From a virus (taxonomy: Duplodnaviria; Heunggongvirae; Uroviricota; Caudoviricetes): a stretch of DNA of 36,662 bases. The stretch is from positions 1-36,662 of IMG/VR virus record IMGVR_UViG_2713896792_000001; one strand, given 5' to 3'. Below the pieces are notes generated by a model that saw only the letters and a program-made list of their open reading frames with translations, was not told the origin of the DNA and did no database searches. Of the stretch, positions 24,815 to 36,633 are shown piece by piece (the stretch's first letter is position 1; every line of letters begins with the position of its first letter). Made by a program: the position numbers and the translations under genes.

Positions 24815-25407
24815 GCGTTAGTTTCTCCACAGTCACGACACGCCACGGCGCCCGGAGCTGCACACTCGCGGGCGTCATTACTTTCTGAAATGCAAAAAAT
24901 TTTGTAGACCAGTGCTGCATGCTCCTGCAGCTTCGAAATTGAGAGGTACAGCTCGTCGTTAATTGCTGTCTTCTCATGCGGTTCCACTACACCGTCTTCA
25001 ATTGCTGAACGAATCTGTTTTGAATAACTGCCGATCTGTTCAATGACTTCCAGCAGGCGCTGGTTAATATCGGCGTTGTCCACATCCTCGACGTCAGGAA
25101 GAGACACAAAGACGCCATTTGCAGACTGCGCCACAGCGTCAGCAATGAAGTGAGTTCCACCAGCACGTTGCAAAATCATTGCCCATCCCAGCGGGAAAAT
25201 CTGATCGCCATCGGCACGAAGGCGGTTAAATAATGCGTTCTCTGTTACATCCAGCCAGTCAGCTGCTTCAGCGTAACCACCCGGCAACTTTGCGATAGTT
25301 TTTCTGACAGCTTTCACGTACCACTCAGGCTGTTTTTCTACTTTCCAGTGATGCTTACCCACGGTTAGCCTCATCGTTCTGTGGTTTCTGTTAATCGATT
25401 TATCCAT
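24811..25407 (-). CDS. CII-like regulatory protein (CP76/YdaT-like, candidate)
   Basis: Track ORF starts at GTG 25476 inside cro; first plausible ATG (Met24, 25407) overlaps cro stop (ATGGATAA); position immediately downstream of cro. Confidence 0.4.
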
Positions 25408-25600
25408 TAGATTTTTCATAAAGCTCAGGTTTAAATGGCAACCGTCCGCAAGTTCTATATGCAGCTTCTGCTGCACGTCCTTTTGGAATTAACTGGCCCG
25501 GACGGTTTCGCCACTGATAAACGGCTTCAGTTGTTATGCCGAAAAAAGCAGCAACTTTCTCAATACTGCCGAAGTAGCTTTCGATATCGTCAGTTGTCAT
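25400..25600 (-). CDS. Cro-like HTH repressor (YdaS family-like)
   Basis: 66-aa ORF divergent from cI, SD GGAGGG; HTH-like segment IEKVAAFFGITTEAVYQWRNR. Confidence 0.6.
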   Translation of the reverse strand: MTTDDIESYFGSIEKVAAFFGITTEAVYQWRNRPGQLIPKGRAAEAAYRTCGRLPFKPELYEKSNG

Positions 25601-25697: not shown

Positions 25698-26324
25698 ATG
25701 GAAACGGTTGGTCAGCGTATAAAAGCTCTGAGAAGAGTTACCAGAACGTCCCAGAAAGAATTGGGTAAATTTTGTGGAGTAAGCGACGTTGCTGTGGGGT
25801 ACTGGGAGAAAGACATCAATACCCCTGGTGGGGAGGCACTTTCGAAATTAGCGAAGTTCTTCAATACGTCAATAGATTACATTCTTTATGGTGCTGAGTT
25901 TGAAGGCAAACTCGTCACAAACATGCGCAGAGTTCCTGTAATATCGTGGGTTCAGGCTGGGCAGTTTACTGAGTGCAGGGCAGCAGAAGTGTTTAGTGAA
26001 GTGGACAAGTGGGTAGATACATCATTAAAGATTGGTGATAACTCATTTGCATTAGAGGTTAAAGGTGACTCCATGACTAACCCTAATGGCCTCCCAACAA
26101 TACCAGAAGGCGCAACAGTGATTGTAGATCCAGATGCAGAACCTCGTCATGGAAAAATAGTCATCGCTCGACTTGATGGAACAAACGAAGCTACAGTAAA
26201 AAAATTAGTCATCGATGGCCCTCAAAAGTTTTTAGTGCCATTAAATCCTCGGTATCCCAACATCCCTATCAATGGTAATTGCCTTATCATTGGTGTAGTC
26301 AAAGGAGTTCAATACGAACTCTAA
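25698..26324 (+). CDS. CI-type prophage repressor (HTH_XRE + S24 LexA-like peptidase)
   Basis: 208 aa; N-terminal HTH (QKELGKFCGVSDVAVGYWE), C-terminal S24 motifs EVKGDSMTNP (Ser) and ATVKKLV (Lys). Confidence 0.85.
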   Translation: METVGQRIKALRRVTRTSQKELGKFCGVSDVAVGYWEKDINTPGGEALSKLAKFFNTSIDYILYGAEFEGKLVTNMRRVPVISWVQAGQFTECRAAEVFSEVDKWVDTSLKIGDNSFALEVKGDSMTNPNGLPTIPEGATVIVDPDAEPRHGKIVIARLDGTNEATVKKLVIDGPQKFLVPLNPRYPNIPINGNCLIIGVVKGVQYEL

Positions 26325-26334
26325 GACCTCTCTT

Positions 26335-26410
26335 CTCTAACTAAGGCACCGAACTAAGAAAAGTTTGGTGTTTTCTCTTGCCATAATAACTAAGTTAAGT
26401 TAGATTTTAT
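26335..26410 (+). promoter_or_regulatory. OL/PL-like region: operator repeats and candidate early-left promoter
   Basis: Three copies of AACTAAG (26339-26345, 26352-26358, 26388-26394); -35 TTGCCA (26378-26383), 17-bp spacer, -10 TAGATT (26401-26406). Confidence 0.4.
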
Positions 26411-26571: not shown

Positions 26572-26778
26572 ATGCACAAAACAGAACCCAAAATCGTCGC
26601 GCCTGGCTACACAGATGAGGAAATTTATGAGTGGATGACAAAGAAGCTGGCAGCTATAAACCAGCTTCGTGAAGTGCTGTCTTATCGACAGGAAACAATA
26701 GACTCCTTAAAAAAACTGGATCAGGAAATCACGGTTTTATCACAGGATGTTACTTTAGATATTGTGCAGACAAATTAG
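26572..26778 (+). CDS. small hypothetical protein (first early-left ORF)
   Basis: 68 aa from ATG 26572 with GAGGAG SD 7 nt upstream; not Arg-rich, so not an obvious N homolog. Confidence 0.35.
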   Translation: MHKTEPKIVAPGYTDEEIYEWMTKKLAAINQLREVLSYRQETIDSLKKLDQEITVLSQDVTLDIVQTN

Positions 26779-27184
26779 GATCCCATTCATTTTCGTCAAA
26801 ATCATCAAAGTGATGAATTTGTGATCTCCAGTCTCGATAATCTAAAAATTTCTGGGCGGTTACGCTTATTTTATCAAGTGTGAGTTCATCCTGAATTGAA
26901 AGAAGAAGTTCATCAAATTTCATCTCATTAATCTGTTTTGGCATCCAGTGATGCTTCATCAGAATAAGGTGAACCAGAGCCTTTTTCCCATTCAACTGAT
27001 TATAGGGAGTGCCGAATTTCTTCCGGTGCTCATGTAAGACAAGGTCCAAAAGAGTAAGTAATGTTGCCCTTGATTCAACTTTGCTTATTTCGACTGATGA
27101 CACTACCCCACTGATTTCAATGCCCCGATACTTTCCAACATTTTCACAGTGGGATTTGTACAGCGTATAGATATTACCGGACAT
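26750..27184 (-). CDS. hypothetical protein (immunity-region orphan, 144 aa)
   Basis: ATG at 27184 with AAAGGAAAAG upstream; AT-rich by inspection; convergent with and overlapping the 3' end of 26572-26778; no TM segments. Confidence 0.5.
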   Translation of the reverse strand: MSGNIYTLYKSHCENVGKYRGIEISGVVSSVEISKVESRATLLTLLDLVLHEHRKKFGTPYNQLNGKKALVHLILMKHHWMPKQINEMKFDELLLSIQDELTLDKISVTAQKFLDYRDWRSQIHHFDDFDENEWDPNLSAQYLK

Positions 27185-27471
27185 TTCTTTTCCTTTTGCG
27201 TTGTTGGGGATAACCAGATTAACCGAATCCTTGTTGTTGGGGAATAACTAGGTCCACCTCGCCTGATGTGGCTAAAAGCAGGCACATAACAGCTAAGTAT
27301 TTTCAACCAGAGAGAATCCTTAGCGTTGTGGTGAATGCGGCTCAGCGCACGCGGGTTAAGGTTGAGGCTGACAGTCGACCTTCTGTGGATACCCACCCGC
27401 CTGGTGTGCAACCTTCGCCAGGCACCGGGAGGCACCCGGCACCACAACTTTATGCTGTGTGTAGTCTTGGC

Positions 27472-27515
27472 GGTACCAGCTTGTACCCTTGCTTCCGGCT
27501 GGTACCGTCCTTTTT
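27472..27515 (+). terminator. intrinsic terminator-like hairpin in early-left leader
   Basis: GGTACCAGC (27472-27480) / GCTGGTACC (27498-27506) 9-bp stem, followed by GTCCTTTTTA. Confidence 0.4.
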
Positions 27516-27652
27516 ACAAAACAGAGAAGAGCATCACCGGACGACGGGCTCATAACCCAATCCATCCGGGCGGCAGTCACCGCAGGTGTTCTTCTCTGTT
27601 TTGTGGAGAAACTAACCGACCTTGCAGGGTCGATATGATGAGGAGCAGCAAA

Positions 27653-28015
27653 ATGGCTAGCGAACGCAGTACTGATGTGCAGGCATTTATCGGGGAGCTG
27701 GACGGCGGCGTATTTGAAACCAAAATCGGCGCAGTTCTCAGTGAAGTCGCTTCCGGTGTGATGAACACGAAAACCAAAGGTAAGGTCTCGCTCAACCTGG
27801 AAATCGAACCGTTTGATGAGAACCGAGTGAAAATCAAACACAAACTCTCATATGTTCGCCCGACTAACCGCGGGAAAATTTCCGAAGAAGACACCACCGA
27901 AACGCCGATGTATGTCAATCGCGGTGGTCGCCTGACTATTCTGCAGGAAGACCAGGGACAGTTACTGACTCTTGCCGGTGAACCTGACGGAAAACTCCGC
28001 GCAGCAGGTCGTTAA
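27653..28015 (+). CDS. yfdP: YfdP-like hypothetical protein
   Basis: 120 aa from Met107 of the track ORF (ATG 27653, SD GAGGAG); first of a 120/274/178/120-aa gene run matching the sizes and order I recall for CPS-53 yfdPQRS. Confidence 0.45.
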   Translation: MASERSTDVQAFIGELDGGVFETKIGAVLSEVASGVMNTKTKGKVSLNLEIEPFDENRVKIKHKLSYVRPTNRGKISEEDTTETPMYVNRGGRLTILQEDQGQLLTLAGEPDGKLRAAGR

Positions 28016-33013: not shown

Positions 33014-33699
33014 TGGGAAGCGAAGATCTGTTCAAAAAAAGAAAGGCTCGGCGTAATAATGAATTCAAACGAGTTAGTAAAGCACGAGCTCAAATGAAGA
33101 AAATTCTTATCGTCTGTGAGGGAGAGAAGACTGAGCCCGCATATTTTACAGATTTTATAAAACATTGCCGTATAAGCACGGCAAGCATAGTTGAGATTTC
33201 TGGAGAGTGCGGCTCAAGCCCTATGAATGTGGTATCTTGGGCAAAAGAAAAATATAATACGGAAAAAAAAAGGAGCGACCCTTATGATAAGGTTTATTGT
33301 GTCTTTGATAGAGACGCTCACCCTAACTATGATGAAGCTCTTAGCAGGATTAATTCCTTAAATCCAAAAGGGATTTTTGTTGCTATAACTTCCATACCAT
33401 GTTTCGAGTACTGGCTGATACTACATTTTGGATACACCCGAAAATCATTTTCACCTCAGAAAGGCAAAAGTGAAGGCGCACAAATGCTAGCTGAGTTAAA
33501 AAAATACATGCCAGATTATGAGAAAAAGGCATCAGGTGTATTTAATAAATTGCAAGATCGGCTCGATACGGCATTAATCAATGCTAAAAGAGTCGAAGAT
33601 GCCGCCAAAAAAGACGGTTCGATAAATCCTTCAACTAAAGTTGGCGCTTTGATTACAGATCTAATTAACATTCGTGATGACTTTGAAAATGAGAAGTAA
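33013..33699 (+). CDS. RloB-like (TOPRIM-like) protein, AbiLii-like
   Basis: Start at Met6 of track ORF (TAATG overlap, SD GGGAGAG); N-terminal ILIVCEGEKTEPAYF motif characteristic of RloB-family proteins (recollection). Confidence 0.6.
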   Translation: MGSEDLFKKRKARRNNEFKRVSKARAQMKKILIVCEGEKTEPAYFTDFIKHCRISTASIVEISGECGSSPMNVVSWAKEKYNTEKKRSDPYDKVYCVFDRDAHPNYDEALSRINSLNPKGIFVAITSIPCFEYWLILHFGYTRKSFSPQKGKSEGAQMLAELKKYMPDYEKKASGVFNKLQDRLDTALINAKRVEDAAKKDGSINPSTKVGALITDLINIRDDFENEK

Positions 33700-33824
33700 A
33701 AATAACATGTCATGATGTAGCGACGGCAGCATGTTTAAGTTCAAATGGCAAAGTGTACGCGAAGTATACGCGGATCAAAAACAATAGAAAAAACGTATAT
33801 TTTACAAAAGATTATATAAATTTT

Positions 33825-33855
33825 GACGCGGGTTCAACTCCCGCCAGCTCCACCA
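33825..33855 (+). other. ssrA: attachment-site core: 3'-terminal 31 nt of the tmRNA gene ssrA (fragment only)
   Basis: GACGCGGGTTCAACTCCCGCCAGCTCCACCA is identical to the 3' end of E. coli ssrA as I recall it; the upstream sequence is not ssrA. Confidence 0.6.
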
Positions 33856-33901
33856 AAATTCTCCATCGGTGATTACCAGAGTCATCCGATGAAGTCCTAA
33901 G

Positions 33902-33935
33902 AGCCCGCACGGCGCAAGCCCTGCGGGCTTTTTTG
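33902..33935 (+). terminator. rho-independent terminator (native ssrA terminator)
   Basis: AGCCCGCA ... TGCGGGCT stem followed by TTTTTT. Confidence 0.55.
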
Positions 33936-35512: not shown

Positions 35513-35776
35513 ATGAAGAAGCGTTTTTCCGACGAACAGATCATCAGTATTCTCCGCGAAGCCGAAGCTGGGGTACCCGCCCGTGAACTCTGCCGCAAGC
35601 ATGCCATTTCCGATGCCACGTTTTACACCTGGCGTAAGAAGTATGGCGGTATGGAGGTGCCTGAAGTTAAGCGCCTGAAGTCGCTTGAGGAAGAGAACGC
35701 CAGACTCAAGAAGCTGCTTGCCGAAGCCATGCTGGATAAAGAGGCGCTTCAGGTGGCTCTTGGGCGAAAGTACTGA
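35513..35776 (+). CDS. IS3-family transposase OrfA (HTH)
   Basis: 87 aa; HTH plus leucine-zipper-like C-terminus ([26 protein letters not shown]). Confidence 0.8.
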
Positions 35777-35799
35777 CGACAGACCAGAAGCGGGAAGCC

Positions 35800-36633
35800 G
35801 TGATGTTGATGTGTGATGCGACCGGTCTGTCGCAACGTCGTGCCTGCAGGCTTACAGGTTTATCCCTGTCGACCTGCCGCTATGAGGCTCACCGTCCGGC
35901 TGCTGATGCGCATTTATCAGGGCGCATCACTGAGCTGGCACTGGAGCGCAGGCGTTTTGGCTACCGTCGTATTTGGCAGTTGCTGCGCCGTGAAGGGCTT
36001 CATGTTAATCATAAGCGCGTGTACCGGCTTTATCACCTCAGTGGCCTGGGCGTAAAACGCAGAAGACGTCGTAAAGGGCTGGCAACAGAACGTCTGCCGC
36101 TGCTCCGTCCGGCGGCGCCCAATCTGACCTGGTCGATGGATTTCGTCATGGACGCACTTTCCACCGGTCGCAGGATCAAGTGTCTTACCTGCGTCGATGA
36201 TTTCACAAAGGAATGCCTGACGGTCACTGTTGCCTTTGGGATTTCAGGCGTTCAGGTCACGCGTATTCTGGACAGCATTGCACTGTTTCGAGGCTATCCG
36301 GCGACGATAAGAACTGACCAGGGGCCGGAGTTCACTTGCCGTGCACTGGATCAATGGGCCTTTGAGCATGGTGTTGAGTTGCGCTTAATCCAGCCGGGCA
36401 AGCCAACGCAGAACGGATTTATTGAGAGCTTTAACGGACGATTTCGCGATGAATGTTTGAATGAGCACTGGTTCAGCGATATCGTTCATGCCAGGAAAAT
36501 TATTAATGACTGGCGGCAGGATTATAACGAATGCCGCCCGCACTCCACGCTGAATTATCAGACACCGTCTGAATTTGCAGCGGGCTGGAGAAAGGGTCAT
36601 TCTGAGAATGAAGATTCCGACGTTACTAACTGA
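35800..36633 (+). CDS. IS3-family transposase OrfB (DDE/rve catalytic domain)
   Basis: 277 aa in the -1 frame relative to orfA; that frame is open from 35740, so an OrfAB fusion by -1 frameshifting is possible; DDE-type motifs ([23 protein letters not shown]). Confidence 0.8.

Follow-up and report, generated by a model that had tools for sequence, protein, structure and literature searches.

Strain EDL933 has 11 STnc100 copies that are transcribed, one of which was confirmed by Northern blotting (PMC5331693), and in Salmonella LT2, RpoD was found to bind at STnc100 promoters (PMC10794520). PasD1 and PasD2 of EPEC are Hfq-dependent small RNAs (sRNAs) that were detected by Northern blotting and for which targets were obtained by RIL-seq (PMC8550237). 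According to a preprint from the Storz laboratory (10.64898/2026.05.13.724894), PasD and STnc100 are structurally homologous and probably share a common origin. DicF of the Qin prophage is found as a 190-nt RNase III product and as a 53-nt RNase E product, both of which end at the DicF terminator (10.1101/2023.04.14.536235). Finally, the putL RNA starts right after its promoter (PMC9378689).

Here, we analyzed the interval 27185-27652 of a 36,662-nt stretch of viral DNA (IMG/VR record IMGVR_UViG_2713896792_000001), referred to below as the window. We conclude that the center of this interval is a divergent, unannotated STnc100/PasD variant that probably doubles as an early-left leader/attenuator, and not a categorically new system. 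Of note are a covariation-supported pseudoknot in the core of this RNA and the occurrence of the same core in the dicBF operon of E. coli K-12 and the ban operon of phage P1.

Results

The interval lies in the early-left operon of a lambdoid prophage

The window is an E. coli lambdoid prophage resembling SfV and SfIV. It carries a cro gene of the P22_Cro type (25400-25600, minus strand; domain P22_Cro) and a LexA-like cI gene with helix-turn-helix and Peptidase_S24 domains (25698-26324, plus strand). Directly downstream of cI, we found a pL-like promoter (TTGCCA-17-TAGATT, 26378-26406, plus strand), which is overlapped by the operator-like motif ACTAAGTT; this motif occurs two more times between cI and cro. 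Judged by these motifs, to which we assign putative promoter and operator roles, 26378-26406 would be a cI-controlled early-left promoter, from which any transcripts that enter 27185-27652 are likely to originate.

The next gene in the early-left operon is located on the plus strand and encodes a 68-amino-acid (aa) protein (phrog_1744). This protein occupies the position of N and showed no Pfam match and no Arg-rich N terminus. No N-like protein was recognized in the window, where the only antiterminator found was the late Q (PF06530, 20149-20508), and no lambda-type nut site (boxA/boxB) with a cognate N was found just downstream of pL. Upstream of the interval lies an orphan gene of the ECs1072 family (phrog_5286; annotated "ECs1072 family" in RefSeq), which is encoded on the minus strand (26750-27184). 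Its antisense insertion in the early-left operon, together with a minus-strand terminator of its own (26668-26643) inside the 68-aa gene, makes it look like a moron. Our literature searches returned nothing useful on ECs1072 or on sRNAs of ST64B. The first gene after the interval is yfdP (27653-28015, plus strand), followed by yfdQ, yfdR, and further genes up to int. The start codon of yfdP is at 27653, which corrects the earlier position of 27654.

Two features were observed elsewhere in the window. Positions 33522-33934 contain a partial match to transfer-messenger RNA (tmRNA; 31 bits) and, after it, an IsrM-like fragment. ARAGORN did not detect an intact tmRNA, and the prophage is probably attached here, at ssrA. 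At 35743-35860, a programmed frameshift element of the IS1222/IS3 family (156.6 bits) marks an insertion sequence at the right end of the window.

The interval is noncoding and composite

Folding of 27185-27660 gave a minimum free energy of -190.6 kcal/mol, compared to -154.8 ± 6.5 kcal/mol for shuffled sequences (z = -5.5). When subintervals were compared to shuffles, the z scores were -3.7 for 27290-27520 and -5.8 for 27510-27660. The GC content was 52.6% in the interval and 63% in the core described below, compared to 38% in the orphan gene, 43% in cI, and 50.4% in the whole window. This is in agreement with the initial annotation, which had described the region as structured and comparatively GC rich.

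The same annotation had seen no convincing open reading frame (ORF) in 27185-27652, and our comparison with relatives confirmed this. Indeed, substitutions relative to ST64B, locus L042 of our collection, and phiES15 were evenly spread over the codon positions in all four overlapping ORFs (e.g., 24/26/25), indels in relatives measured 1 and 20 nt and were thus no multiples of 3, and the only RefSeq annotation over 27328-27638 is a "frameshifted hypothetical protein." The ORFs present on both strands, together with the "hypothetical protein" entries in phage records and in RefSeq, could be taken to mean that the interval encodes either a 95-aa protein (27268-27555) or a YfdP with an N-terminal extension that begins at 27335. 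However, the absence of codon-position bias and the nontriplet indels led us to reject both coding readings. Additionally, the RefSeq ORF is itself flagged as frameshifted, and the changes are compensatory in RNA helices, so that we give a coding function hardly any credence.

BLAST searches against phage genomes divided the interval into three modules with separate distributions. Query positions 1 to 69 were confined to phages carrying the orphan gene, positions 70 to 282 were found in SfV, SfII, SfIV, ST64B, and others, and positions 283 to 468, which comprise the terminator, the long hairpin, and the yfdP leader, were also present in mEp460, cdtI, and Stx2c phages. Among complete E. coli genomes, 2782/5426 contained the whole or part of the 468-bp interval, and 1626/5426 contained at least 80% of it. 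CPS-53 of K-12 lacks the element and has only the yfdP ribosome-binding site in common with the interval. Existing annotations either leave this abundant locus blank or give it as a broken ORF.

The left 70 nt belong to the divergent orphan gene. This region upstream of the gene (27185-27254, minus strand) forms a separate mosaic module that is missing from SfV, SfII, and ST64B, whose homology starts at query position 70 or later. The direct repeats reported in the initial annotation are present, GTTGTTGGGGATAAC at 27200-27214 and GTTGTTGGGGAATAAC at 27233-27248, with a 1-nt indel between them, and the only other match to them in the window has 3 mismatches. We note that the repeats (27200-27248) flank a likely promoter of the orphan gene. 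The initial annotation had also considered that the interval could be the promoter and operator of this gene. Direct repeats of 15 and 16 nt, 33 bp apart and just upstream of the start codon, would suit such a role, as would a weak promoter candidate (TTATTC-18-GTTAAT) recognized between them by inspection only. However, the repeats cover only 27200-27248, and the other ~400 nt are kept in phages without the orphan gene (SfV, ST64B) and show covariation of a plus-strand RNA. For the interval as a whole, this reading is thus very improbable. It is possible for the leftmost ~70 nt, in which no convincing sigma-70 consensus promoter was found.

The core is a pseudoknotted fold of the STnc100 type

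An Rfam search, which the initial annotation had proposed, gave a divided answer. No family reached its gathering score within the interval, but the STnc100 model (RF02076) matched 27295-27518 over its whole length with 43.4 bits, below the gathering cutoff of 47 (E values of 6.7e-8 in a 1-kb search and 2.4e-6 for the whole window). All core features of STnc100, namely, the closing helix, the GGUGAAU junction, helices P2, P4, and P5, and CACCGGGAGGCACCCGGCACC, are present on the plus strand at 27325-27448. This conserved 124-nt pseudoknotted core was delimited by comparing more than 100 related prophage loci, with the STnc100 model and a custom covariance model; the window contains it once, and the pR operon does not contain it.

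The custom model, R1, was based on relatives gathered by a pattern scan of IMG/VR (85 distinct cores) and from phage records. The pattern behind this collection fixed GGTGAAT and P5. R1, the training alignment of which included the window sequence, finds 131 core copies in 100 sources, some of them beyond the reach of the pattern.

The closing helix P1 pairs 27325-27333 with 27440-27448, and its 5' strand is followed by the junction AAU. P2 (27337-27352) has the loop CUCAGCG and a bulged A, and P4 pairs 27399-27406 with 27416-27423. P5 (CCGGG-AGGCA-CCCGG, 27425-27439) is nearly invariant, in part because the collection pattern required it. Finally, AAGGUUG (27358-27364) and CAACCUU (27409-27415) form an H-type pseudoknot. 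Two hairpins precede the core on the plus strand. The first, H0 (GCCUG, a 13-nt loop, and CAGGC; 27261-27283), was recognized by alignment. Both H0 and the ACAYAACA that comes after it are kept in SfV and also in phiES15, which is divergent elsewhere. The second, P0 (GCUAAG...CUUAGC; 27292-27324), was predicted by folding and lies directly 5' of the core; its position is taken by other hairpins in phage P1 and phiES15.

In the core alignment, which was fitted to the model, 96.4% of the cells were standard pairs, compared to 41 to 46% when the partners were slid (98 distinct sequences). Double-sided changes occurred at 19 of the 25 core pairs, and the covariation score was 0.477, compared to at most 0.125 in controls. 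Helices P1, P2, and P4 are supported by this covariation. Further compensatory changes were found in P5 of Qin (CCUGG/CCAGG) and in helix P1 of array units (GAUG/CAUC).

The pseudoknot was assessed by permutation. In almost every copy, 6 to 9 nt starting 3 to 5 nt after P2 are complementary to the P4 loop, in 61 sequence versions. The summed complementarity was 659, compared to 460 ± 11 when loops were permuted among sequences, and none of 300 permutations reached 659. The difference between phiES15 (AAGGCUG/CAGCCUU) and the window (AAGGUUG/CAACCUU) is likewise compensatory. The folding and covariation analysis across homologous prophages that had been suggested for this region thus supports both the helices and the pseudoknot. 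We found no description of this pseudoknot in the literature consulted.

The loops and junctions of the core (GGUGAAU, CUNNGCG, and AGGCA) are very strongly conserved. This conservation exceeds what a simple sRNA scaffold would need and suggests a specific partner. Directly before the window copy, we found no convincing promoter; a weak -10-like GAGAAT is located 12 nt before GGUGAAU, has no -35 element, and is not kept in ST64B.

A conserved unpaired stretch and a terminator follow the core

P1 is followed on the plus strand by a conserved single-stranded stretch, UUUAUGCUGUGUGUAGUCUUG (27449-27469), which has the character of a seed and is similar to the 5' portion of DicF. In a five-way alignment of the window, SfV, ST64B, L042, and phiES15, these 21 nt (UUAUUGCUGUGUGUAGUCUU) were nearly invariant, while the terminator hairpins following them were unrelated in sequence. 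This is the pattern expected of a functional single-stranded stretch combined with a generic terminator.

The clean terminator-like hairpin pointed out in the initial annotation proved to be an intrinsic terminator (27469-27515, plus strand) with a 13-bp GC-rich stem and a 15-nt loop. Its arms, 27469-27481 and 27497-27509, are followed by a C and then by a U5 tail at 27511-27515. ST64B and phiES15 have terminators of other sequence in the same position. The motif UGCUGUGU and a terminator are also found 3' of other GCGG-type cores (the window core is of this type), at times after an inserted hairpin. In locus L085, the terminator after UGCUGUGU is closer to DicF, yet it reaches only 25.8 bits with the DicF model, which matches the window at 27456-27510 with 19.4 bits (E value of 0.19).

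A search of the window for targets of the seed-like stretch found none when up to 3 mismatches over 18 nt were allowed, and perfect complements of at least 11 nt were also not found. When evaluated with RNAduplex, the stretch paired with the ftsZ leader no better than shuffled seeds did (a fraction of 0.57 to 0.59 of the shuffles was at or below the observed energy); this test is crude, as RNAduplex ignores intramolecular structure.

The 5' arm of a long hairpin (27511-27609, plus strand) begins with the U tract of the terminator. This hairpin, which has a 25-bp stem and a branched tip, lies within the segment folding with z = -5.8 and shows compensatory changes in ST64B and L042 (G-C to A-U; C-G/G-U to U-G/G-C). 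It stays with the unit upstream of differing first genes and might be processed by RNase III in transcripts that pass the terminator. A small hairpin predicted by folding (27617-27632, plus strand) and the Shine-Dalgarno sequence of yfdP (GAGGAG, 27640-27645) complete the leader.

Related cores occur as standalone units and within early operons

Relatives of the interval are found in SfV-, SfII-, SfIV-, and ST64B-type phages, and phage records extend their range to Escherichia, Shigella, Salmonella, Klebsiella, Cronobacter, Citrobacter, and Hafnia. This taxonomic breadth rests on the phage records, since the pattern used for scanning genome contigs was too narrow (3 Escherichia/Shigella loci).

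Copies of the CCCC type are located between the DUF968/Q region and the holin gene or before nanS-p-like esterases. Many of them have a promoter, TTGACx-17-TAAATT, that ends ~8 nt before P1/GGUGAAU, and ~72% have a terminator 30 to 90 nt after the core. The linker between core and terminator is 25 to 70 nt long, variable, and unstructured. A promoter of its own, a variable linker, and a terminator are the anatomy of an sRNA gene. Some loci contain tandem arrays of 3 to 5 promoter-core-linker-terminator units with a period of ~250 nt, in which the linkers differ between units (L073, 4376-5462; L025, 369-991; L014, 2323-3354; L037, 1722-2344). The STnc100/PasD family appears to be a modular scaffold-plus-seed system.

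GCGG-type copies sit inside repressor-controlled early operons. The core precedes yfdP in the window, SfV, and ST64B, and in phiES15 the core and its terminator precede kil. In the ban operon of phage P1 (L002, 2499-2627) and of SJ46 (L003), the core is located directly before tciA. The phage P1 core is preceded by a boxA-like UGCUCUUUC and ends 31 nt before the tciA ATG, with no terminator in between. In the Qin prophage of K-12 MG1655 (L125, 1952-2084, corresponding to about 1649451-1649583 of NC_000913.3), the core fills the spacer from the dicF terminator to dicB and ends ~25 nt before the dicB ATG. It scores 34 bits with the Rfam STnc100 model and 77 bits with R1. We found no description of a core in the dicF-dicB spacer in the literature consulted. 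A promoter upstream of dicB has reportedly been described in older work and may relate to this core. A second core upstream of dicF, as a candidate for part of the 190-nt DicF precursor, was considered and rejected, the best R1 match there being 5 bits.

The phage P1 and Qin cores run straight into a gene start without a terminator and thus look like 5' untranslated region (5'-UTR) elements rather than sRNAs. Because of these copies, a serious rival to the sRNA reading is that the core acts in cis in the 5' UTR of yfdP, kil, dicB, or tciA and that no trans-acting RNA is made. It could then stabilize the transcript or direct its processing, form a tRNA-like four-way junction to which RNA-processing enzymes bind, or sense a ligand or a protein. 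The position of the GCGG-type copies directly before gene starts and the invariant loop nucleotides, with the specific partner they suggest, speak for this reading. Additionally, P5 abuts the 3' strand of helix P1, so that the two could stack like a T arm on an acceptor stem. However, ARAGORN found nothing tRNA-like, and no alternative pairing between core and terminator, as a riboswitch would have, was seen by inspection. The terminator linker is variable and unstructured, and standalone copies start at P1 and so have no 5' leader to remove. Moreover, the genes downstream of core copies (yfdP, kil, dicB, tciA, and nanS-p) are mutually unrelated and form no coherent regulon. We thus regard a purely cis-acting role as unlikely.

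A different cis role would be that of a put-like RNA that modifies RNA polymerase, so that pL transcripts pass the terminator at 27469-27515 and later ones without N. This is attractive because the terminator stands between pL and yfdP...int and no N was recognizable, which puts in question the route by which the early-left genes, xis and int included, would be expressed. The element is located early in the operon and just before an intrinsic terminator, as it is in ST64B and phiES15, and only the late Q was found as antiterminator. Its fold is elaborate and highly conserved, and in standalone copies P1 forms the 5' end of the RNA, directly behind the promoter, which is also how putL starts. 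However, neither sequence nor model similarity to the early region of HK022 was detected, in which we found no core motif and no R1 match (L004). The window has a single copy of the core, with none in the pR operon, and the Qin core is placed after the dicF terminator and not before it. Furthermore, each standalone unit has one or two strong terminators behind it, and arrays repeat the succession of promoter, core, and terminator, which would be senseless for a constitutive antiterminator. Members of the STnc100/PasD family also accumulate as discrete terminated RNAs. Taken together, a put-like function is improbable.

Apart from these copies, we noticed more distant similarities. In the late leader of phage lambda, between tR' and S, P1-like GUUGUGCUG/CAGCACAAC occur with GAAU and UAAGCG; at L130, 1046-1143 (about 44845-44942 of lambda), GUGCUCUUUCCGUUGUGCUGAAUUAAGCG...CAGCACAAC is kept, with a P1-like helix and junction. 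Neither the Rfam STnc100 model nor R1 scores this leader, which may be a decayed relative of the core. In mEp460 (L127, 2353-2492), a weak core-like match (26.5 bits) lies just upstream of the terminator and long-hairpin module, which suggests that a degenerate core is present in phages thought to share only the yfdP leader. In ST64B (L128, 21-97, minus strand), an isrK match above threshold (64 bits) is found next to a c4-a1b1-like match and near the antirepressor-like sb41.

Discussion

Our data are best explained if the segment from ~27322 to 27515 encodes a terminator-ended sRNA of the STnc100/PasD type that combines a scaffold and a seed, and if its terminator also attenuates early-left transcription. 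We assign this reading a probability of roughly 0.55, and it is the best fit both to the anatomy of the locus and to the experimental record of the family. The initial annotation had proposed either an sRNA or a regulated leader/attenuator. Both roles are supported by the homology to STnc100/PasD, the covariation, the seed-like stretch, and the terminator between the pL-like promoter and yfdP, and we infer that the window copy is expressed.

The locus would then operate as follows. As polymerase arrives from pL, the core would fold, and the terminator would stop most transcripts, releasing a stable RNA of ~195 nt. Cleavage by RNase E in the AU-rich linker after P1 might yield a shorter, DicF-like form of ~65 nt. 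The 190-nt and 53-nt products of DicF provide a precedent for such processing. The conserved unpaired stretch could serve as a base-pairing seed for targets in trans, with the core as its scaffold, and Hfq would bind at the terminator with its U tail. The same terminator would attenuate transcription into yfdP...int, and transcripts that read through would form the 25-bp hairpin, a probable RNase III site separating the sRNA from the downstream mRNA.

By its assignment to the STnc100/PasD family, an abundant prophage element acquires an identity that can be tested. In addition, the fold, with its pseudoknot and its very conserved loops, shows that the same domain is present in the dicBF operon of K-12, in the ban operon of phage P1, and in arrays before lysis genes. 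We tentatively propose, as a less likely extension, that the core is a functional RNA domain of its own. Its partner could be RNA polymerase, a protein of the host or of the phage, or a small molecule; alternatively, it could mimic the L shape of tRNA. Such a domain would be portable among temperate enterobacterial phages. It would be used either with interchangeable seeds, as promoter-core-seed-terminator units that are in some cases arrayed in groups of 3 to 5, or before the host-manipulating genes dicB, kil, and tciA. If this were true, the dicF-dicB spacer of K-12 and part of the phage P1 ban operon would belong to one unrecognized class of structured RNA.

We finally compared the terminator-ended RNA proposed here with the known systems. 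As in the lambda N leader, which comprises nutL and an RNase III hairpin, the ribosome-binding site of the first gene is separated from an early-left RNA signal by a long hairpin. However, no boxB/N pair was identified in the window, and the boxA-like UGCUCUUUC, present in the phage P1 and lambda relatives, is degenerate in the window. With HK022 put, the locus shares a structured RNA near the start of an early operon, before terminators, in a phage without a recognized N. Unlike the window element, put measures ~70 nt and has two stems, and STnc100/PasD members terminate rather than antiterminate.

The locus also resembles DicF (RF00039) and the dicBF operon. Each of the two lies behind a cI-like repressor gene, in an operon with a pL-like promoter. 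In each RNA, a short unpaired stretch rich in U and G leads into a GGCGG...CCGCC-type terminator, and both RNAs are part of a longer structured precursor. Moreover, the pseudoknotted core adjoins dicF in K-12. However, the scores with the DicF model (19.4 bits for the window and 25.8 bits for the L085 relative) are far from its cutoff of 48, the ftsZ-pairing loop is missing in the window RNA, and its ftsZ pairing is at chance level. The order also differs, since dicF precedes the core in Qin, whereas in the window the core precedes the DicF-like tail, and the Qin region upstream of dicF is not a recognizable core.

From described STnc100/PasD RNAs, the window copy differs in scoring 43.4 bits against a cutoff of 47 and in having the GCGG variant of P2 instead of CCCCC. 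Standalone relatives have clear promoters, whereas no own promoter was found for the window copy. It is located in the early-left operon and not in the Q-lysis or nanS-p region, and it carries a DicF-like tail and an extra long hairpin. Nevertheless, its match spans the whole model, from the closing helix with GGUGAAU through the P2 hairpin and CACCGGGAGGCACCCGGCACC to the 3' terminator, and it shares with this family a length of ~200 nt and a residence in enterobacterial lambdoid prophages.
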